Source: an uncultured Thermoleophilia bacterium
GTDB taxonomy: Bacteria; Actinomycetota; Thermoleophilia; UBA2241
Reading direction: 5' to 3'
NCBI GenBank assembly: GCA_963702475.1
Contig: CAVPCT010000001.1
Coordinates: 32,001-96,000, forward strand
Length of the DNA: 64,000 bases
Of the stretch, positions 6,013 to 18,855 are shown one piece after another. The position numbers and the translations under genes are program-made. The notes beneath the pieces are model-generated. The model saw only the letters and a list, made by a program, of their open reading frames with translations, was not told the origin of the DNA and made no database searches. The number at the start of each line of letters is the position of its first letter. The stretch's first letter is position 1.

Positions 6013-6753
6013 ATGGAGCTGCTCCTGCTCTCGAACTCCACCAACTACGGCGGCACCATGTTCTCCCATGCCGCGCAGGCATTCTCCGCCGTCTCGGCCG
6101 GTAGCGTCGTGACGTTCATCCCGTACACGCTCGCGGACTGGGACGACTACGCAGACAGAGCCATTTCGGCGCTCGGATCCTTCGGCATCGATGCCGTGTC
6201 GGCTCACCGTTCCGGCGCTCCGGACCGGGCGATCCTCGAGGCCGAGGTCGTGATGATGGGCGGCGGCAACACGTTCCGGCTGCTCGACTCGCTGTATCGC
6301 CTCGGCGTGGTCGAGGGGCTCGGCGCCCGGGTGCGCGCCGGCGCCACCCGCTACGTGGGCGCCTCCGCCGGCACCAACGTCGCCTGCCCGACGATCCGCA
6401 CCACCAACGACATGCCGATCTGCCGGCCCCCCAGCTTCGCGGCGCTCGGGCTGGTGCCGTTCCAGATCAACCTGCACTACATCGACGCCGACCCGGCCTC
6501 GACCTTCATGGGCGAGACACGGGAGGAGCGTATCGCGGAGTTTCTCGAGGAGAACGACTGCGCCGTGCTGGCGCTGTACGAGGGCTCCTGGCTGCGTGTC
6601 AGTGGCGAGTCCGCGGTGGTCACCGGCCGCGGGCGGCTGTTCGAGCGCCAGGACGTCGGCACGTTCCACCAGGGCCTCGACGTCTCCGGGCTCCTCGGGC
6701 ACACGCCGCGCTTCGACGGCGGCAGACGACCAGAGCCGGGAGGTTCATCATGA
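6013..6753 (+). CDS. pepE: Dipeptidase E (alpha-aspartyl dipeptidase, peptidase S51)
   Basis: MELLLLSNST, GGGNTFRLL, catalytic GASAG, PTIRTTNDMPI, FQINLHY, GETREERI. Confidence 0.95.
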   Translation: MELLLLSNSTNYGGTMFSHAAQAFSAVSAGSVVTFIPYTLADWDDYADRAISALGSFGIDAVSAHRSGAPDRAILEAEVVMMGGGNTFRLLDSLYRLGVVEGLGARVRAGATRYVGASAGTNVACPTIRTTNDMPICRPPSFAALGLVPFQINLHYIDADPASTFMGETREERIAEFLEENDCAVLALYEGSWLRVSGESAVVTGRGRLFERQDVGTFHQGLDVSGLLGHTPRFDGGRRPEPGGSS

Positions 6754-7838
6754 TGGGCAAGTCCGCGGTCGTGTACTCCGAGGCGTTCTTCGGCACCCCC
6801 GACGGCAAGACCGCCAACGGCCTGGTGCGGCACTCGGAGAAGTACGAGGTGCTCTCGGTGATCGACAGCACGAAGACGGGAGTCGACGCCGGCGCCTATC
6901 TGGACGACGTCCCCAACGGCATCCCGATCTGCGCCGACCTCGCGGACGCCATCGCTCTCGCGGGCCGCGTGCCCGACGTCTTCATCATCGGCGTGGCGCC
7001 CCTCAGCGGCCTGCTCTCTCCGCACCAGCGCGGCGTGGTGCTCGACGCGATGCGCCGCGGCATGTCCATCGTCAACGGCCTGCACGAGTTCCTGAACGAG
7101 GACCCGGAGTTCACGGTGGCCGCGGCGAAGTACGGCGTCCTGATCGACGACGTGCGCCGTCCGCGCGCCAAGAAGGACCTGCGTATGTTCACGGGCGGCA
7201 TCGATGAGGTGACCTGCCCTCGCATCGCCGTTCTGGGCACAGACGGTGCCATCGGCAAGCGGACGACCGCGGTCATCCTCACTCGCGCGCTTGTCGAGAG
7301 AGGCATCAAGGCGGTGATGGTCGGCACCGGACAGACCGGTCTCATCCAGGGCGCGCGCTACGGCATCGCGCTCGACGCCATCCCCTGCCAGTTCTGCTCG
7401 GGCGAGATGGAGGCAGCCGTCATGGAGGCGTTCGAGGGCGAGCATCCGGACGTCATCGTCATCGAGGGGCAGGGCGCGCTGAGCCATCCCGCCTACTTGT
7501 CGTCGACCTTCATCCTCAGAGGCGCGCGGCCCGACGCCGTCATCCTGCAGCACGCGCCCGCACGCCGCATGCTGGGCGACTTTCCGGACGTGCGCACTCC
7601 GACGCCCGCCAGTGAGATCGCCCTGCTGCGGGCGTTCGCCGGCACGCCGGTCATCGGCCTGGCCATCAACCACGAGGACATGACCGACGCCGAGGTCAGC
7701 GCGGCGATCATCCTGTACGAGCTCGAGCTCGGCATCCCGGCCACGGACGCGCTCACGCGGCCGGCCGGCCGCCTGGTCGACATGGTGCTGGCGGCGTTCC
7801 CGGCGCTGGAGGCGAGGCTCACGCTCGGCGTCGCCTGA
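6750..7838 (+). CDS. DUF1611 family protein (DgcN-like)
   Basis: GKTANGLVRH, NGLHEFL, GTDGAIGKRTT, GTGQTG, IEGQGALSHPAY. ATGA overlap with pepE. Confidence 0.9.
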   Translation: MMGKSAVVYSEAFFGTPDGKTANGLVRHSEKYEVLSVIDSTKTGVDAGAYLDDVPNGIPICADLADAIALAGRVPDVFIIGVAPLSGLLSPHQRGVVLDAMRRGMSIVNGLHEFLNEDPEFTVAAAKYGVLIDDVRRPRAKKDLRMFTGGIDEVTCPRIAVLGTDGAIGKRTTAVILTRALVERGIKAVMVGTGQTGLIQGARYGIALDAIPCQFCSGEMEAAVMEAFEGEHPDVIVIEGQGALSHPAYLSSTFILRGARPDAVILQHAPARRMLGDFPDVRTPTPASEIALLRAFAGTPVIGLAINHEDMTDAEVSAAIILYELELGIPATDALTRPAGRLVDMVLAAFPALEARLTLGVA

Positions 7839-11349: not shown

Positions 11350-11853
11350 GTGTCGCAGCGTACCGAGGATCTCAGCCGCCTGATGCCGCTGCTGCGGCAC
11401 GCCATCGCGCATCTCGGCGTCGAGCAGACGACGACCGGCAGGGCGCTCGGTCTGACCAACGCGCGGGTCATCGCCATGGATGCTCTCGACGCCGAGGACG
11501 GCTGCTCGATGGGCGAGCTCGCCCGCCGGCTCGAGCTGCCGTCCCCGCTGGCGACCCGGGTCGCGGACGAACTCGTTGATCGAGGGCTGGCGCTTCGCGG
11601 CGGAGACCCCCGCGACCGGCGCCGGGTCGTCGTGCGCCTTACCCCTGAGGGCCGGGGGGCGCTCAGGGCCATCCATCGCGAGGCCGAGGAGCTCGTCTCC
11701 ACCGTGCTCCTTCGCATGTCCGAGGAGGAGACGGCCTCGTTGCTCGTCGGCCTCAGGGCGTTCCTCCGCGCGCTGCACGCACCCAGCGAGGACGGGACTC
11801 CCGCGGCGCTTCCCGACCACGACCACACCTTCGCCACCGGGCGAGACCGATGA
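11350..11853 (+). CDS. MarR family transcriptional regulator
   Basis: SMGELARRL..ATRVADELVDRGL..DPRDRRRVVVRLTPEG. Confidence 0.93.
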   Translation: MSQRTEDLSRLMPLLRHAIAHLGVEQTTTGRALGLTNARVIAMDALDAEDGCSMGELARRLELPSPLATRVADELVDRGLALRGGDPRDRRRVVVRLTPEGRGALRAIHREAEELVSTVLLRMSEEETASLLVGLRAFLRALHAPSEDGTPAALPDHDHTFATGRDR

Positions 11854-12743
11854 ACCAGGCGAGCTCCCCCGTGTGGGAGCACGACCACTCCTTCGGGCAG
11901 GAGCTGCGGCGGCCCGGCGAGCGGCGGACGCTCGTCGTCATAGCGATCACCGCCGCCATGATGGTCGTGGAGGTCGTCGCCGGCCTGGCGTTCTCGTCGA
12001 TGGCCCTTCTGGCGGACGGCCTGCACATGGCCTCGCACACCGTCGCGCTGAGCATCGCGGCCTTCGCCTACATCTACGCGCGCCGTCACGCCCACGACCG
12101 CAGGTTCAGCTTCGGGAGCGGCAAGGTGAACGCGCTCGGCGGGTTCACCGGGGCCGTACTGCTGGCGTCGTTCGCCGCGTTCATGGCCGCGGGAAGCGTC
12201 GAGCGCTTCGTGCATCCGGCCGCGATCCGCTACGACTCCGCTATCCTGGTCGCCGTGGTCGGACTGGTCGTCAACGGCGCCTGCGCCGTGATCCTCAACG
12301 TGAAGGACCCCCACCACGACCATCACGACCACAACCTCCGCTCGGCCCACCTGCACGTGCTCGCGGACGCGCTCACCTCCCTGCTGGCGATCGTGGCATT
12401 GCTCACGGCCAAGTACGTCGGCCTCACCTGGATGGACCCGCTCATGGGCATCGTCGGCGCCGTGCTGGTCGGGCGCTGGTCGTTCGGCCTGATGCGCGCA
12501 TCTGGCCGTGTGCTGCTCGACAGGGAGGCGCCGGAGGAGCTGCGACGCCGTCTCGTGCGCTGCATCGAGGAGGGTGACGTCGCCGACGTCGCCGACCTTC
12601 ACCTGTGGTCGATCGCGCCGGGCATCTACGCCGCGGAGCTGGTCGTCGTGTCGCCCGAGCCGCTCGCGCCCGACGCCTACAAGGCGATGCTTCCCGCCGC
12701 CCTCGGTCTCGGGCACGTCGCGGTGGAGGTCCACCGCCGCTGA
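11850..12743 (+). CDS. dmeF: CDF family Co/Ni/Zn efflux transporter (DmeF-like)
   Basis: HDHSFGQ, SMALLADGLHMASH, His-rich loop HHDHHDHNLRSAHLHVLADA, DLHLW. ATGA overlap with the MarR gene. Confidence 0.85.
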   Translation: MNQASSPVWEHDHSFGQELRRPGERRTLVVIAITAAMMVVEVVAGLAFSSMALLADGLHMASHTVALSIAAFAYIYARRHAHDRRFSFGSGKVNALGGFTGAVLLASFAAFMAAGSVERFVHPAAIRYDSAILVAVVGLVVNGACAVILNVKDPHHDHHDHNLRSAHLHVLADALTSLLAIVALLTAKYVGLTWMDPLMGIVGAVLVGRWSFGLMRASGRVLLDREAPEELRRRLVRCIEEGDVADVADLHLWSIAPGIYAAELVVVSPEPLAPDAYKAMLPAALGLGHVAVEVHRR

Positions 12744-12939
12744 AGACGGCGCCGCGTCGGTCCGGCGCGCCCGGCGGTTGCTGGCGGCGCGGCCGTCTGT
12801 CGACGGCACGTTTGGTCCGGACTGCCCCTGAGGCCGGGTCGAGGGTACGATGGCAGCGTCGGCCGGGTCCCGGCGGGGCGTGCCGGGGCCGGGATCCTCG
12901 CGACGCCCGGCGTCGCGTCCGCGTCTGTGGAGGTGTTCC

Positions 12940-14178
12940 GTGCGCAAGGCTGCAAGCGTGTCGGTTCTCGTGGGACTTCTCGTCGTGCTGTGCTCACTCG
13001 TGCCGGCGGTCGCCGCCGCGGGGGGCTGGGAGAGTCAGGCCTCGGGTACGACGCGGTCGCTGAAGGCTGTCGCCTTCGCGGATGCGACGCACGGCTGGGT
13101 CGTGGGAGAGGTGGGGGCCATCCGTGCGACCGGTGATGGCGGTTCGACCTGGAAGGCACAGGCCTCCGGGACCGATCAGGAGCTCTACGGCGTAGCGTTC
13201 GGCGACGCGAAGCACGGGTGGGCGGTCGGCGAGGGTGGCATCCTCGTCGCCACAGCGGACGGCGGCGCGTCGTGGGCGCCGCAGATGTCTGCGGCGCAGA
13301 ACGCGCTGTTCGGTGCGGCGGCGACCGACGCGGCCCACGCCTGGGCCGTCGGACTCGGCGGCACGATCGTCGCGACGACCGACGGCGGAGACCACTGGGC
13401 GGCCCAGACGTCGGGCACGAACGTGCCCCTGAGCGCCGTCGCCTTCGTCGACACGTCTCGCGGGTGGGCCGTGGGCTCCGGAGGTGCGATCCTCGCTACC
13501 TCCGACGGCGGAGTCCGCTGGACCCCGCAGGCCTCGGGGAGCACGGCGGACCTGCGGGCGGTCGCGTTCGCAGACGCGTCGCACGGCTGGGCCGTCGGCA
13601 ACGACGGGGTCGGCGGCGTCATCCTCGCCACGAAGGACGGCGGAGCCACCTGGGCGCCCCAGAGTCTGGGCGCCTCGTACAAGGTCGCGTGGCTCACCGG
13701 CATCGCCACCGCGGGCGCCTCGCGCGCCTGGGCGGTGGGCAACTGGGGCTCCATCCTCGCCACCGGCAACGCCGGCGATACCTGGTCGGCGCAGAGCTCG
13801 GGGAGCAGCGACAACCTCACCGGCGTGTGCGTCGCCGACGCGTCGCGCGGCTGGGTCTGCGGCTGGAACGGCACTGTTCTCGCTACCGCGAGCGGGGGTC
13901 AGGAGCCGCAGCCGTCAGCCGCGCCGGTCATCACCGGCCTCAGCCCGTCCTCGGCCAGGCGCGGCGCCGTGGTCACCGTGAAGGGCCGGGACTTCGGCGC
14001 CGCGCGCGGCGCCGGCACGGTGCGCTTCGGCGCCGCCGTGTGCACGGCGTACGTCTCGTGGAGCGTCTCGGCGATCCGCTGCAAGGTGCCTGGCAAGGCT
14101 GCCATCGGCGCCGTCAAGGTCACGGTGACCACTGCCTCCGGCACGAGCAACGCCAAGAGCCTGCGGGTGAAGAGGTAG
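12940..14178 (+). CDS. Secreted YCF48/BNR-repeat beta-propeller protein with C-terminal IPT/TIG domain
   Basis: RBS GGAGG, signal peptide, about 7-8 repeats of AVAF.D..HGWAVG..G.I.AT.DGG.TW..Q.SG, then ITGLSPSSARRG IPT domain. Confidence 0.88.
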   Translation: MRKAASVSVLVGLLVVLCSLVPAVAAAGGWESQASGTTRSLKAVAFADATHGWVVGEVGAIRATGDGGSTWKAQASGTDQELYGVAFGDAKHGWAVGEGGILVATADGGASWAPQMSAAQNALFGAAATDAAHAWAVGLGGTIVATTDGGDHWAAQTSGTNVPLSAVAFVDTSRGWAVGSGGAILATSDGGVRWTPQASGSTADLRAVAFADASHGWAVGNDGVGGVILATKDGGATWAPQSLGASYKVAWLTGIATAGASRAWAVGNWGSILATGNAGDTWSAQSSGSSDNLTGVCVADASRGWVCGWNGTVLATASGGQEPQPSAAPVITGLSPSSARRGAVVTVKGRDFGAARGAGTVRFGAAVCTAYVSWSVSAIRCKVPGKAAIGAVKVTVTTASGTSNAKSLRVKR

Positions 14179-14223
14179 CGGCGGACTCGCCGGCGCAGGC
14201 GTTCGTCGGAGGAGGGCCGCTCT

Positions 14224-15216
14224 GTGTCGCTCGTCGTCGTGACCGGTGCTTCCGGGCTCGTGGGGGCCAATCTGGTGCGGGACCTCGTGCGTGAGGGGAG
14301 GCAGGTCCGCGTGCTGGTGCGCGCCGACACGCGCGCCGTGGATGGGCTCCCGGTCGAGCTGGCGCGAGGCGACCTGCGTGACGCGGCGGCCGTGTCGAAG
14401 GCGGTGGCCGGAGCCGACGCGGTGTACCACATGGCCGGTTCCATCAGCGTCGGGCAGCTCCCGCCGGCGTACGTGCACGCCGTCAACGTCGGCGGCACGG
14501 AGAACGTCGTCCGGGCTTGCACGGCGTGGGGCGTGGGGCGGCTGGTCTACTGCAGCTCCGTCCACGCTCTCGACCACCGGCCGGACGAGGTGCCTGTCGA
14601 CGAGCAGCGCCCGCTGTGGACCGACGACCGGCACTGCTCGACCTACGACTTCTCCAAGGCCACCGCGGAGCGCGTCGTGCTCGGCGCCGTCCGGCAGGGA
14701 CTGCACGCGGTCATCGTCAACCCGACTGCCATCGTCGGCCCCTGCGATTTCAAGCCCTCGTGGATCGGCCGGTTCCTCCTCCGGCTGGCTCACGGCCGCC
14801 AGCCGGTGCTGATGGACGCGGGCTTCGACTGGGTGGACGCGCGCGACGTGGCCGCAGGGGCGCGGGCCGCCGAGCGGCTCGGCCGGGCCGGGGAGCGCTA
14901 TCTGCTCTCCGGCCACTGGTGCTCACTGCCCGACATGGCGGCCCTGGTCGCTCGGGCTACGGGCCGGACCCTGCGCAACATCACGCTCCCGGTGGGGTGG
15001 GCGCAGGCGCTGGCCCGCCCGTACGCGTCCGCGAACCGGCTGGTCGGGAGGGTCACGCCGATCACGCCCGAGGCCGTGGAGGCCACACGTCACTGCCGCC
15101 TCGTGAGCCGCGCCAAGGCGGGCGCCGAGCTCGGCTACGCGCCGCGGCCGCTGCCCGAGACGCTGGCCGACACCGTCGCCTGGCTGGACGGCCGCGCGCG
15201 ATACACTCCGTCCTGA
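14224..15216 (+). CDS. NAD-dependent epimerase/dehydratase (dihydroflavonol-reductase/HpnA-like)
   Basis: TGASGLVG, NVGGTENV, YDFSK (YxxxK), VDARDVA. Confidence 0.92.
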   Translation: MSLVVVTGASGLVGANLVRDLVREGRQVRVLVRADTRAVDGLPVELARGDLRDAAAVSKAVAGADAVYHMAGSISVGQLPPAYVHAVNVGGTENVVRACTAWGVGRLVYCSSVHALDHRPDEVPVDEQRPLWTDDRHCSTYDFSKATAERVVLGAVRQGLHAVIVNPTAIVGPCDFKPSWIGRFLLRLAHGRQPVLMDAGFDWVDARDVAAGARAAERLGRAGERYLLSGHWCSLPDMAALVARATGRTLRNITLPVGWAQALARPYASANRLVGRVTPITPEAVEATRHCRLVSRAKAGAELGYAPRPLPETLADTVAWLDGRARYTPS

Positions 15217-15218
15217 CG

Positions 15219-17222
15219 ATGGACGCGAGCGACTTCAAGACATCGGCCTCGGGGCGCGTGGTCACCTGCCCGGAGGGCTACGCAGCCTTCGTACCGGCGC
15301 CGCTGCCTCCGCGGCTGGCGTTCACGCGCGAGCTGGCCGTCGCCCTCTCGCGCGCCGACGCCGCCCTCGGCGTGCTCTCCGGCCTCGGCGGCGAGCTGCC
15401 CGACCCGGCGGCGCTGGCGGCGCCGTTCCTCCGGCAGGAGGCGCTCTGCTCGTCGCGCATCGAGGGCGCGGACGTGAGCCTCACGGAGGTGCTGCTCGAT
15501 GAGATCGCCGCGGCGCCGCCGGGCTCCCGCGCCGACCAGCTCGCCGAGGTGCGCAACGCCCTGGCGACGCTCACCTACGGTGTCGAGGCCGTCGTGCGGT
15601 GGCCGCTGGACCTCGCGCTGGTCCGCAGCCTGCACGCTCGCCTGCTCCGCGGCGAACCCGCCACGGCGCGGGCGCCCGGTGAGTTCCGGACCACCCAGAA
15701 CTGGATCGGACCGCCCGGTGTGACGCCTGCGGAGGCCACGTACGTCCCGCCGCCGGTGCCGGAGATGCTCGGCCTGCTCGAGCAGCTCGAGGCCTTCGTG
15801 GCGGAGCGCGACCGGCTGCCCGACCTCGTGCAGTGTGCCATCGCCCACGCGCAGTTCGAATCCCTGCACCCGTTCGTCGGCGGCAACGGGCGCCTCGGCC
15901 GCATCCTCATCTTGCTGTTCCTCGTCGGGCGCGGCCGGCTCTCCCGGCCGCTGCTGTATCTCTCCGCGTACCTCGAGGCGCACCGCCGCGAGTACTACAC
16001 GCTGCTGCAGCGCGTGCGTACCCGCGGTGAGTGGCGGCCGTGGCTCCTCTTCTTCGCAGAGGGCGTGCGCGAGACGGCGGAGCACGCCCACGTGCAGGCG
16101 CGCGAGCTGCTGCGCCAGCGCGCCCTGTACCGCGGACAGGCGGAGGGCACTGGCCTGCGGCTGGTGGATGAGCTCTTCATCTCGCCGTTCGTGGCCGTGC
16201 GCGAGGTGCGGCGCACGCTGGCGGTGAGCGACGGGACCGCGCGCCGCGCCGTGCTCGACCTCGAGAGGCGCGGGCTCCTCGTGCCCCGGGAGGGCACGAC
16301 CCGCCCGCGCGTCTGGGTGGCACAGCCCATCCTCGACGCCGTCGAGGAGCCCATCGACGCCCTTGTGGGTGAAGCGGGTGAGGCTCCGGAGGGCGAGCCG
16401 CTCAAGTCGCTGCTCGGCTGGGACAGGCGCCCGCGGCGCCTGGCCGACCGCCTCATGACCGAGGCCATGGCCATGGTCGACGTGGCGCGCAGCGCCGGGG
16501 TGGACGTGCGGCTGGTCGGCGGCCTCGCGGTGCGCCGCCACTGCATCGACCTGCGGTTCGCGGACCGCGAGTACTCCGACGTCGACCTCGTCGGCCTCTC
16601 GTCCCAGGGCGAGGCGCTGCGCGAGGTCTTCGCCGGCCTCGGCTACGCCGAGAACCTCTACGTGAGCCAGGCCACCGGCGGGCGGCAGCTCCAGTTCGTC
16701 AAGAAGGAGGGCGTCCACGCCCGCCCTCTCGTCGACCACGTCGACGTCTTTCTCGACGTGATGCGCATGGATCACGACGTCGACGTCCGCGACCGCCTCA
16801 CGCTCGACGACTACGCCATCTCGCCCGTCGACACGCTCATCGCCAAGGCCCAGATCGGGACGATCAACCAGAAGGACGTGCACGACATCATCGCCCTGTG
16901 CAAGGATCTGCCGCTGCGCGAGACCGACGACGACCTCTCGATCTGCGTCCCGTACCTCGCCGAGACGTGCGCGTGGGACTGGGGCCTCTACACCGACCTC
17001 ACGGCCAACCTCAGGATCGTGCTCGACTGGCTGGACGATTTCGGCCTCACCGAACGGGAGAAGGCGCGCGTGTACGGCCGTGTCACCGCGGCCCTCGAGG
17101 CCATCGAGGACGAGGACAAGCCGCTCGGCTGGCGGCTGCGGGCGCGCGTCGGCAGGCGCGTGGCGTGGCGGCGCGAGGTGGAGTGTCAGGACGAGACTCC
17201 CGTCGTTACTCCGCTGGAGTAG
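15219..17222 (+). CDS. Fic-domain protein fused to a C-terminal nucleotidyltransferase-like domain (667 aa)
   Basis: AFVPAPLPP, inhibitory-type SSRIEG, PGEFRTTQNWIG, HPFVGGNGRLGR and a winged helix, then VGGLAV..REYSDVDL..HVDVFLD..KDVHD..DWGL in the same frame. Confidence 0.85.
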   Translation: MDASDFKTSASGRVVTCPEGYAAFVPAPLPPRLAFTRELAVALSRADAALGVLSGLGGELPDPAALAAPFLRQEALCSSRIEGADVSLTEVLLDEIAAAPPGSRADQLAEVRNALATLTYGVEAVVRWPLDLALVRSLHARLLRGEPATARAPGEFRTTQNWIGPPGVTPAEATYVPPPVPEMLGLLEQLEAFVAERDRLPDLVQCAIAHAQFESLHPFVGGNGRLGRILILLFLVGRGRLSRPLLYLSAYLEAHRREYYTLLQRVRTRGEWRPWLLFFAEGVRETAEHAHVQARELLRQRALYRGQAEGTGLRLVDELFISPFVAVREVRRTLAVSDGTARRAVLDLERRGLLVPREGTTRPRVWVAQPILDAVEEPIDALVGEAGEAPEGEPLKSLLGWDRRPRRLADRLMTEAMAMVDVARSAGVDVRLVGGLAVRRHCIDLRFADREYSDVDLVGLSSQGEALREVFAGLGYAENLYVSQATGGRQLQFVKKEGVHARPLVDHVDVFLDVMRMDHDVDVRDRLTLDDYAISPVDTLIAKAQIGTINQKDVHDIIALCKDLPLRETDDDLSICVPYLAETCAWDWGLYTDLTANLRIVLDWLDDFGLTEREKARVYGRVTAALEAIEDEDKPLGWRLRARVGRRVAWRREVECQDETPVVTPLE

Positions 17223-17277
17223 GGGGGCCGGCCGGGGTCGCGCCTGCCCCGTCGCGGGCCCCTCGCCGTTCGCGACC

Positions 17278-18279
17278 TCAGAGCGGCTTGACCGGTACGC
17301 AGATGTCCACCACGGACTTGTGCTCGGGGTGCTGCGCCGGGTCGTTCAGATACTGCTCGTAGCACACGCCGTCCGCCGGCTGGTAGCCGCTGTCGGGCAG
17401 CCAGCCGCAGAACACGGCGTCCCACGCCGCCGCGTAGTCGTCGTCCGTCAGCTCGAACCCGGCGACCGCCCAGGTCCCTCCGGGGATCACCATCGTGCCG
17501 ATCTCGCCGTCCACCTGCGTGTCGTCCGGAACGCTTACCCCGACGCTCACGCGCAACTTGTCGGGTTCCGTGAGCCCGGGGTCGTCGTGGTACACCGCCA
17601 CGACCCTGGACTGGGGTCCCAGGAGTCCGCGCGCTCCCGCCCACAGCATGATCTTGCCAAAGAGCCTTCCGAAGAGTTCGGCGTCGCCCGCGTACGGGCC
17701 GGTGTGCCGGACGTAAGCCAGCGTGAACGCCGGCATCTCCCTGACCTCCACCCGCGCCTCGATGTCGCCTTTGCCTGGGCCGCCTGCCTGCTCCTCGCGT
17801 GCGTGCTGCTCCGTCATCGTCACCCTCCACGTGGACCGTTGCCGTGCGGCTTCACTGTGGATCGGTGTGACCTGCCAGTCTTTGCGCAGCTTGCCGAGTG
17901 CTTGACGATCCTTGCGGTCTTGCGCGCCGGCCCGGCCCATCGTGCGCCGCCACTCGCTTGCGCTCACGCCGAAGGTCTCCTTGAAGGCGCGGGCGAAAGG
18001 AGCCGAGCCCGAGAACCCGCAGTCCAGGGCCACGGCCGTGATCGGCCTGCGTGGCGAGGCCACGAGCTGCCGGGCCGCCCGCTCCACGCGCAGTCTGCGC
18101 ACGTACTGTGCGGGCGTCTCGCCGACCATGGCGGCGAAGATGCGGTGGAAGTAGAACGGCGAGAAGGCCGCCACCCGGGCCAGTTCCTCCAGCGTCAACT
18201 GGTCGCCGAGGTGCTCGTCGACATGGTCCATCACCCGGTTGATGCGGGCGACGTACTCCGCGCGCGCCGGCCGCGGCAT
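17278..18279 (-). CDS. AraC family regulator with GyrI-like effector domain
   Basis: FSPFYFHRIF, VALDCGFS..FARAFK; C-terminal LAYVRHTGPY, YHDDP, WLPDSGYQP, YEQYLNDP. Confidence 0.93.
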   Translation of the reverse strand: MPRPARAEYVARINRVMDHVDEHLGDQLTLEELARVAAFSPFYFHRIFAAMVGETPAQYVRRLRVERAARQLVASPRRPITAVALDCGFSGSAPFARAFKETFGVSASEWRRTMGRAGAQDRKDRQALGKLRKDWQVTPIHSEAARQRSTWRVTMTEQHAREEQAGGPGKGDIEARVEVREMPAFTLAYVRHTGPYAGDAELFGRLFGKIMLWAGARGLLGPQSRVVAVYHDDPGLTEPDKLRVSVGVSVPDDTQVDGEIGTMVIPGGTWAVAGFELTDDDYAAAWDAVFCGWLPDSGYQPADGVCYEQYLNDPAQHPEHKSVVDICVPVKPL

Positions 18280-18303
18280 GAGTCCTCCCTTCGCGCCCAG
18301 TCG

Positions 18304-18855
18304 TTACTGGTACATGCGCTCCAGGAGGGCGTTCGCCAGCCGCGCGCCGAGATCGGCCGGGTCGTCCGGGTACACCGCAGGGTCCCAATCCACGCGGATC
18401 ACGGCGTCGCCCTTGCGCACGATGATGCCTGCGCGCCCGTCCGAGAACTTGACTATCGCGGCCTGGTCGCCGACGCCGCTCACCTCCTGGACGGAGCCGG
18501 CCTCTGCGTAGGAGAGCATGTCGTCGTAGCCGGCCTGCCCGCCGGCCACGTTCACGCCGAAGTAGATCTTCGAGCCGTCGACGCCCGAGGCGATGAAGCC
18601 GCCGGCCGGTTTGCCGTCCTGGGCCGCCGAGGACGCCTCGGGAAAGGCCTCCATGGTCTTGCCGGTGACGGCGCCGACGTCCGCCGGTGTGAGAGCGTCC
18701 TCGAGCGTCCAGCCGTCCGCAAGCGTGATGACCGCAGAGGACTCTGCGTCGGCCGCCGCCGCCGACGTGTCGCTGCTCTCCTCGGACGAGCCGCAGCCGA
18801 CGGCCGCTAGCGCTCCGACGATGACCACCACGCCAAGGACGATGACCCGTAGCAT
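18304..18855 (-). CDS. Lipoprotein of unknown function
   Basis: Hydrophobic signal ending LAAVGC, Ser/Ala linker, VSGVGDQA motif. Confidence 0.8.
   Translation of the reverse strand: MLRVIVLGVVVIVGALAAVGCGSSEESSDTSAAAADAESSAVITLADGWTLEDALTPADVGAVTGKTMEAFPEASSAAQDGKPAGGFIASGVDGSKIYFGVNVAGGQAGYDDMLSYAEAGSVQEVSGVGDQAAIVKFSDGRAGIIVRKGDAVIRVDWDPAVYPDDPADLGARLANALLERMYQ

Follow-up and report, generated by a model that had tools for sequence, protein, structure and literature searches.

What does a protein do that carries two unrelated nucleotidyl-transfer folds in a single chain, one of them without a residue of its catalytic motif? Bacteria attach nucleotides to proteins, RNAs and small molecules mainly by means of Fic enzymes and minimal nucleotidyltransferases (NTases), which have been studied separately, mostly as toxins, effectors and resistance enzymes. 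The question is raised by a gene on the forward strand of a 64,000-nucleotide stretch from an uncultured Thermoleophilia bacterium (contig CAVPCT010000001.1, positions 32,001 to 96,000; the window in the following), which encodes a Fic domain, a winged helix-turn-helix (wHTH) and a C-terminal NTase in one open reading frame (ORF). The kinds of component are known, but no account of the Fic-wHTH-NTase architecture turned up when the literature was searched in full text for a Fic-nucleotidyltransferase fusion. One bacterial family of uncultured soil and sediment actinobacteria keeps the two enzymes in one chain, in two or three paralogs. Our analysis shows that the fusion is old, that the Fic site has since lost its metal ligand and that the NTase has an intact catalytic set; tentatively, we propose that the NTase provides the output and that the Fic-wHTH half regulates or targets it.

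Two nucleotidyl-transfer folds in one chain

A preliminary description, made from the letters alone, had read the locus as a single 667-residue ORF with an SSRIEG helix, a Fic motif bearing glycine at the acidic position, a winged helix followed by an acidic linker, and a Pol-beta-superfamily NTase of the GG/DxD/D layout. All of these elements were recovered (Table 1), and the start of the ORF is backed by conserved N-termini (MDxSEF...) among the relatives in alignment A1. In the AlphaFold model, the wHTH consists of helix-helix-helix-hairpin and is followed by the low-confidence acidic linker. The full-length model, with a predicted template modelling score (pTM) of 0.53, gives no reliable orientation between the domains, and a complex prediction of the Fic-wHTH half (1-380) with the NTase half (400-660) scored 0.00 without controls, which is no verdict either way.

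Pfam, NCBIfam, PADLOC and PDB searches agree on the N-terminal half, which we therefore assign, by its sequence, to the class II (Glu-inhibited) SoFic-type Fic proteins, including their winged helix. The Pfam Fic profile matched with 57.6 bits against a cutoff of 24 (E = 2.3e-15), and the PADLOC SoFic model aligned end to end over residues 20-376 (2.8e-94). The NCBIfam SoFic equivalog NF046030 aligned over residues 36-367 with 123.4 bits, short of its cutoff of 550. The nearest solved structures are PDB 7cb8 (5e-40), an unnamed Fic protein, and SoFic itself, the protein adenylyltransferase of Shewanella oneidensis (PDB 3eqx/3zcn; 2e-36), which share with the fused protein the inhibitory helix SxxxEG, the Fic core and the C-terminal winged helix. 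The class II signature, (S/T)xxxE(G/N) upstream of the Fic core and within Fic_N, is present as SSRIEG. Among 29 aligned fused proteins, residues H217, N223, G224, R225 and R228 are invariant, and Glu82 and the segment PGEFRxxQNWIGPPG are invariant or nearly so. Only at position 5 of the Fic motif, HPFVGGNGRLGR, is the acidic residue missing: 7cb8 and SoFic have Asp, whereas the fused protein has Gly221. The N-terminal half descends from the SoFic-type Fic proteins, differing from them in one defining feature of the catalytic motif and falling below the equivalog cutoff.

Compared with SoFic, the fused protein has a further 290 residues, which form the NTase. Taken alone, the C-terminal half (P0002, 287 residues) gave no Pfam match at E<=10 and no PADLOC match at E<=1. 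Of 1.84 billion cluster representatives (at 50% identity) that were scanned, at least 1401 are related at E<=0.001, and 826 of them reach E<=1e-10. Most of the best 150 of the 1401 are standalone proteins of ~250 residues. The residues D454, D456, R526, K543, W588, R641 and G645 are invariant in 114 of 114 aligned relatives, while G434 (112), R450, D509 (110), H519, Q545, D553 (111), D556 (113), K634, W638 and W650 are found in 110-113 of them. The Pol-beta pattern hG[GS]...[DE]x[DE]...third carboxylate is present as G434-G435, D454xD456 and D509, and the order of strands and helices in the model fits the fold of this superfamily.

Modelled with the family alignment, the NTase half reached a mean local confidence (pLDDT) of 91 and a pTM of 0.86. 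Searched against 48,161 chains with VIA-align, this model matched eight chains at Z>=8, all of them nucleotidyltransferases: MenT1 (8an4; Z 12.7, root-mean-square deviation 3.4, 172 aligned), ANT(2'')-Ia (12.2), a Paracoccidioides NTase-like protein (11.6), LnuA (10.6), TglT/MenT3 (10.0), JHP933 (9.7), MenT4 (8.7) and TM1012 (8.6). The same set was ranked on top by Foldseek. By sequence, the uncharacterised Pfam family PF14907 (NTP_transf_5) matches 56 of the 114 relatives at E<=0.01 (best 7.6e-08; those inspected individually stay below the 31.2-bit cutoff) and not the window's own domain (Pfam, E<=10). An ESM Atlas look-up led to clusters that are unnamed or called 'nucleotidyltransferase family', from Actinomycetota and Chloroflexota; in a neighbouring cluster, 'Nucleotidyltransferase family protein', 15% of the members carry PF14907. 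By its model and its conserved residues, the C-terminal half is a Pol-beta-superfamily NTase with an intact catalytic set, belonging to an unnamed family near PF14907, and it is probably active. The fusion offers a first functional handle on this large, uncharacterised family. The same NTase family is also found fused to other domains, as AhpC-X, MarR-type wHTH-X and X-phosphoribosyltransferase (P0163, P0201 and P0208).

Origin of the fusion and loss of the acidic residue

The earlier caution that the fusion could be recent did not hold. A word-index search listed 119 relatives, 116 of which have at least 600 residues and 115 of which combine the Fic motif with DxD...DxFxD. When one genome per species was scanned, 216 stretches proved to encode it, and the 63 loci retained come nearly all from metagenome-assembled genomes (MAGs) titled Thermoleophilia, Actinomycetota or Actinomycetes. 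Two loci (L054 and L063) are from MAGs titled Deltaproteobacteria and Gemmatimonadales, the other titled loci being all from Actinomycetota; mis-binning or transfer could explain them. Of 301 sampled genomes of the class, 145 had some match. Among the matches listed, those spanning both halves all fall within a single family (f1), in which 49 of 55 genomes match.

The window's genome (4.3 Mb, 9 contigs) encodes a second fused protein, 60% identical and also with HPFVGGNGRLGR, and no other SoFic-type Fic was found in it with this query. It further encodes two standalone homologs of the NTase half, with 36% and 32% identity; one of them, with a TGA inside its match, comes directly after the gene of a DeoR-type regulator, and the other is preceded by an ORF that weakly matches metallophosphoesterases. 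With this query, no copy of a third fused subfamily, C, turned up in the window's genome; several genomes of the same genus have it in tandem with acid-less subfamily B copies, ~3 kb off. The near-universal presence in one genome family, with two or three paralogs, makes inheritance look vertical rather than mobile. The fusion is old and lineage-specific, with up to three paralogous subfamilies (A, to which the window's copy belongs, B and C), and appears to be vertically inherited.

The second copy of L068, as well as L069 and L070, read in two or three frames, which could raise the suspicion of an artefact or recent accident (a false join in the assembly, loss of a stop codon, or a deletion that merged two genes). 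However, the frame of L068 breaks within five consecutive G (around 6750-6790) and both flanking frames follow the family consensus, so that splits of this type look like MAG assembly errors and not like naturally split genes. The frame changes in L069 and L070 are similar, and assembly errors are the probable cause in all three. The two halves are in frame in subfamilies A, B and C. A 1928-nt DNA contig from the public run X1 covers positions 15447-17374 and spans the linker with 10 substitutions and no indel, although X1 may be the window's source sample and is not necessarily independent. Within the ORF, X1 and a second run gave 12 and 16 substitutions with 5 and 6 amino-acid changes, and no stop codon or indel in either. 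We regard an artefact or recent accident as extremely improbable.

The two halves were placed in quick maximum-likelihood trees of 84 Fic halves and 71 NTase halves, with support from the approximate likelihood ratio test (SH-aLRT) only. In the Fic tree every fused copy falls into one clade (SH-aLRT 100), which is nested among standalone, Asp-bearing proteins, and subfamily C is sister to A and B together (98). In the NTase tree, too, all fused halves form one clade (99), including two short fragment-like rows, and the sister group of this clade consists of standalone NTases of the same genome family. Since the two trees each give one fused clade, both halves support a single fusion. For the acidic residue, the Fic half favours a single loss.

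At positions 5-6 of the motif, the 128 fused proteins compared have GG (111), DS (12), GA (3), AG (1) or RG (1). Their nearest standalone relatives (n=85, 51-56% identical) have DG in 83 cases and GG in two; the two with GG are incomplete fused proteins, labelled 'partial', and the complete standalone relatives carry Asp in 83 of 83 cases. The fused subfamily C has EG (HPFLEGNGRLGR), in frame with the NTase at five of five loci. The acid-less copies share four further substitutions alongside D/E221G, namely V76L, L77C, T84A, which adjoins the inhibitory EG, and V146E. At position 146, acid-less fused copies have an acidic residue in 44 of 45 cases (E in 42, D in 2), as against none of 28 canonical copies (V in 25, G in 3). 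The glycine at the acidic position is a derived trait across the lineage, and the metal ligand is the only part of the Fic site that has gone missing since the fusion. The series from a standalone Fic with Asp, over a fused protein with Glu, to an acid-less fused protein with a co-varying new Glu amounts to a natural experiment on the role of the acidic motif residue and on the conversion of a Fic domain.

Possible roles of the two halves

We favour, with a probability of roughly 45%, a division of labour in which the catalytic output comes from the NTase, and the Fic-wHTH half, its own chemistry weakened or altered, serves as a module for regulation or targeting. As the carboxylate is lost and the rest of the Fic site is retained, a regulatory or targeting module is the most likely role for the Fic-wHTH half. 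The NTase half would transfer a nucleoside monophosphate (NMP) from the triphosphate onto a hydroxyl of its substrate. The Fic-wHTH half would derive from an active fused ancestor, the canonical Glu of which is still present in subfamily C; in the window's subfamily the metal-binding carboxylate has been lost, whereas the catalytic His, the anion hole, the two Arg, the pre-motif segment and the inhibitory Glu remain in place. This half may dimerise and bind DNA as well as a ligand or target, and with attenuated or altered AMP transfer it could gate or aim the NTase. The direction of control and the nature of the substrate are here part of what we infer. Among the three readings offered in the preliminary description, that of an NTase controlled by an altered Fic/DNA-binding module fits best. 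Fused MNT-HEPN systems, which are reportedly under oligoAMPylation control (PMC13000451), provide a loose analogy. For SoFic, dimerisation via the N-terminal helix and binding to its own promoter through the wHTH are described in the available part of bioRxiv 10.64898/2026.07.09.737422; unlike SoFic, the fused gene has no intergenic promoter region of its own, as it follows the preceding gene after 2 nt.

Several observations weigh against this division of labour. The Fic active-site residues other than the acid, the inhibitory Glu and the pre-motif segment are all strictly conserved, which exceeds the needs of a scaffold and fits retained or altered catalysis. Within the window's own subfamily A, one clade has regained Asp (HPFVDSNGR): the 10 DS sequences included in the tree group together with an SH-aLRT of 99. 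Subfamily C is placed with B in the NTase tree, with an unstarred support of 88, unlike in the Fic tree, so that the acid may have been lost once or twice. AlphaFold confidence is low at residues 147-178 and 219-222, so that the geometry of the Fic active site is not readable from the model. On the NTase side, the fold matches do not distinguish between RNA, protein and small-molecule substrates. With a median net charge of -4 over 114 sequences the family is mildly acidic, so charge gives no argument for an RNA substrate, and we rejected it as a clue to RNA binding. Finally, Glu146, gained as Asp/Glu221 was lost, could replace the metal ligand, and the Fic half could then be fully active.

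This last point leads to a reading in which both halves are active on one target or pathway, as a writer/eraser pair or a two-step NMP relay, the Fic half relying on Glu146 or the inhibitory Glu82 in place of the lost metal ligand, or on a metal-independent donor. The conservation of His217, Asn223, Arg225, Arg228, Glu82 and the pre-motif segment is in agreement with it, as is the gain of an acidic residue at position 146 specifically in acid-less copies. Moreover, Glu-bearing Fic enzymes are described as bifunctional in the available part of bioRxiv 10.1101/323253, and SoFic both AMPylates and deAMPylates EF-Tu according to the accessible sections of bioRxiv 10.64898/2026.07.09.737422. However, the former source, as far as available, also reports that the acidic motif residue holds the metal that stabilises the phosphates, including for AMPylation, and that the E115A mutation of this residue in EfFIC impaired deAMPylation. 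EfFIC and the likewise bifunctional, Glu-bearing FICD have the same inhibitory Glu and motif framework as the fused protein; in these enzymes the acidic residue is part of a metal switch and is required (bioRxiv 10.1101/323253, available part), whereas the fused protein lacks it. The absence of a residue needed for metal binding weakens the two-enzyme writer/eraser that had been suggested earlier. In addition, no structure places Glu146 near the active site, AlphaFold confidence there is below 50, and nothing identifies a shared target. Taken together, we consider activity of both halves on one target or pathway rather unlikely.

More specific versions of this coupling would make the locus of higher interest, namely if the Fic half has a relocated catalytic carboxylate or acts on the NTase to which it is fused. 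The Fic half may have been re-engineered, either by moving its metal ligand to Glu146 or by turning into a reader of NMP-modified residues, and may form an intramolecular switch with the NTase; we consider this quite unlikely. By analogy with SoFic, which modifies EF-Tu, and with MenT enzymes, which modify tRNA ends, one fold in such a switch might write a nucleotide mark on Tyr452 or on a shared translation target, and the other might read, relay or erase it, which we likewise hold to be improbable. If true, a switch of this kind would couple two unrelated chemistries of nucleotidyl transfer within one chain, and a ligand moved to Glu146 would be a natural case of a migrated catalytic residue in a Fic enzyme.

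Substrate class and genomic context

The fold matches bear on two further alternatives to the proposed regulation of the NTase by the Fic-wHTH half. In the first, the protein would be a single-chain toxin-antitoxin or abortive-infection module, in which a MenT/AbiEii-like translation toxin is held in check in cis by the Fic-wHTH half. MenT1 is the top structural neighbour, and TglT/MenT3 and MenT4 are also among the matches; ANT(2'')-Ia and LnuA resemble the model about as closely as MenT1. MenT1 and MenT3, DUF1814/AbiEii toxins of Mycobacterium tuberculosis, likewise combine a minimal NTase core containing DxD with a helical subdomain, and share with the NTase half a conserved Lys and two Asp in the helical part, a parallel in spacing inferred from residue numbers in the available part of PMC11375011. 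In the same portion of that paper, the two toxins are neutralised by modification of T39 and S78, near DxD. The residue two positions before DxD is Thr or Ser in the MenT toxins and Tyr in the fused protein, in which Y452-S453 is invariant among the 29 aligned sequences; a modification of Tyr452, at the place of the phosphoacceptor Thr39 of MenT1, might thus serve as the check. The strong match to the PADLOC SoFic model also fits, and E. coli Sofic (EcSofic) is described in the accessible part of PMC12249575 as a toxic abortive-infection protein that is countered by a small downstream antitoxin protein. However, Tyr at position -2 is found in just 61 of 114 members of the wider NTase family, and Tyr452 was rejected as a family-wide acceptor. 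Pfam AbiEii (PF08843) matches only one of the 114 relatives (E = 0.0095), and, unlike the MenT toxins, the NTase half has no sequence membership in PF08843, with no match of the window's domain at E<=10, and no antitoxin gene.

The surroundings of the fused gene also lend no support to a toxin-antitoxin or defence module. In the window it is accompanied by genes for a metallo-beta-lactamase-fold protein, a cation-efflux protein, a BNR/TIG protein and an epimerase, and further by a convergent AraC/GyrI regulator, an S15 peptidase-like protein, a methyltransferase and an AMP-binding enzyme. In subfamily A almost no flanking-gene clusters are common to 13 loci. Pfam searches of 20 flanking ORFs from eight subfamily A loci gave EamA and MFS transporters, MTTB methyltransferases, NIF3-RNase H, a GyrI-like protein and other metabolic genes. 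Subfamily B, including the paralog in the window's genome, has kept a chromosomal synteny with a nitroreductase gene upstream and a PD40/NlpC-P60 gene downstream. Long, spurious high-GC ORFs contaminated the clusters obtained by comparing all flanking ORFs with one another, which were used only for the synteny in B and its absence in A. No conserved operon or antitoxin partner of the AbiEi/MenA type was found near the fused gene in the 63 loci, and the Pfam scans of neighbours turned up neither defence nor mobile genes (PADLOC was not run on neighbours). Close standalone relatives of the NTase adjoin NAD synthase (two loci), metallophosphoesterase (one locus) and other genes, and none had a Fic or antitoxin-like partner in six loci inspected, five of them with neighbours scanned. 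These contexts point to no defence island, mobile element or two-gene toxin-antitoxin ancestor, and the earlier suggestion of a fused toxin-antitoxin or defence protein found no support in them. Together with the near-universal occurrence of the gene in one genome family, in two or three paralogs, they make such a module unlikely.

In the second alternative, the NTase would modify an antibiotic or metabolite, in the manner of ANT(2'') or Lnu enzymes, and the Fic-wHTH half would be a sensor or transcriptional regulator. The family profile matched only two entries in the PDB, ANT(2'')-Ia (E = 0.015) and a lincosamide nucleotidyltransferase (E = 0.11), both weakly and over GG...R..DxD, and the fold matches to ANT(2'')-Ia and LnuA rank among the upper ones. 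The negative net charge of the family is compatible with a small-molecule substrate, as are the EamA/MFS transporters and GyrI-like proteins near subfamily A and the AraC/GyrI regulator downstream in the window. Against this, the E-values are weak, the ANT(2'') family PF10706 (Aminoglyc_resit) matches only two of 114 relatives, and the neighbouring genes are not conserved. The likeness to ANT(2'')-Ia and LnuA is weak in sequence, the helical subdomain of the fused protein is larger, and no resistance context was found. That ~20 residues are invariant or nearly so in a family of at least 1401 cluster representatives suggests a single conserved substrate shared by its members, and not a range of xenobiotics. 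A small-molecule NTase of this kind seems very doubtful to us.

The gene begins 2 nt after an epimerase gene (Pfam Epimerase, 4e-34; stop at 15216, ATG of the fused gene at 15219), as stated in the preliminary description, which took the two to be probably co-transcribed. Co-transcription is possible given the short gap, but the epimerase is adjacent in none of the 63 related loci, nor is any other of the window's flanking genes, and hence this adjacency carries no functional signal. A scan of 11500-18500 found no promoter-like sites, and three terminator matches in the same interval are at chance level, two of them lying within the ORF. One run presumed to be RNA contains contigs from parts of the stretch, which is no evidence of transcription. 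The G+C content of the window is 72%.

Table 1. Position of the fused gene, its parts and its homologs. Plain numbers are positions in the window; homologs are given by genome, contig or locus.
Feature	Residues	Position	Strand	Basis or context
Whole ORF (P0001): Fic_N - Fic - wHTH - linker - nucleotidyltransferase	667 in total	15219..17222	+	Translation, internal stops = 0
Fic_N domain including the inhibitory helix	42-123	15342..15587	+	Pfam PF13784, 7.5e-16
Inhibitory motif SSRIEG with Glu82	78-83	15450..15467	+	E82 in 84/84 Fic alignment rows
Fic core	129-235	15603..15923	+	Pfam PF02661, 2.3e-15; PDB 7cb8 and SoFic matches
Glu146, candidate relocated metal ligand, specific to acid-less subfamilies	146	15654..15656	+	
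Fic motif HPFVGGNGRLGR with His217, Asn223, Arg225 and Arg228	217-228	15867..15902	+	
Gly221 in place of the metal-binding Asp/Glu of the Fic motif	221	15879-15881	+	
Winged helix-turn-helix	311-367	16149..16319	+	AlphaFold pLDDT ~90; NCBIfam SoFic alignment; weak GntR match
Acidic, poorly conserved linker	376-405	16344..16433	+	pLDDT <50 at 385-405; variable columns in alignment A1
Nucleotidyltransferase catalytic subdomain	408-522	16440..16784	+	Conservation in 114 relatives; AlphaFold; fold matches
G434-G435 of the nucleotidyltransferase	434-435	16518-16523	+	
Y452-S453-D454-V-D456 of the nucleotidyltransferase	452-456	16572-16586	+	
D509 of the nucleotidyltransferase (context H507-V-D509-V-F-L-D513)	509	16743-16745	+	
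Helical C-terminal subdomain of the nucleotidyltransferase	536-655	16824..17183	+	Conservation in 114 relatives; AlphaFold
Second fused paralog, own genome, subfamily B		G000:C3:914890-916926 (locus L065)		Beside nitroreductase, cupin and PD40-repeat genes
Standalone nucleotidyltransferase homologs, own genome		L066 G000:C2:24816-25607; L067 G000:C3:618846-619571		
Subfamily C copies with HPFLEGNGRLGR		L071-L075 and L068:5604-7635 (five loci plus the frameshifted G226 copy)		

Of the neighbouring genes in the window, the one at 12850-14178 (+), between the cation-efflux gene and the epimerase, encodes 442 residues with BNR/YCF48-like beta-propeller repeats and a C-terminal IPT/TIG domain. The convergent gene downstream of the fused gene, at 17278-18279 (-), encodes an AraC-type HTH with a GyrI-like small-molecule-binding regulator domain, and in one related locus a GyrI-like protein is encoded 3' of the fused gene (L003:8227-8739). 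Relatives of the fused protein carry a variable insert, rich in Ala, Pro and Glu and up to ~75 residues long, that separates two core strands of the NTase (columns 525-600 of alignment A1; ~16727-16733 in the window); the window's protein and its 88%-identical relative are without it.

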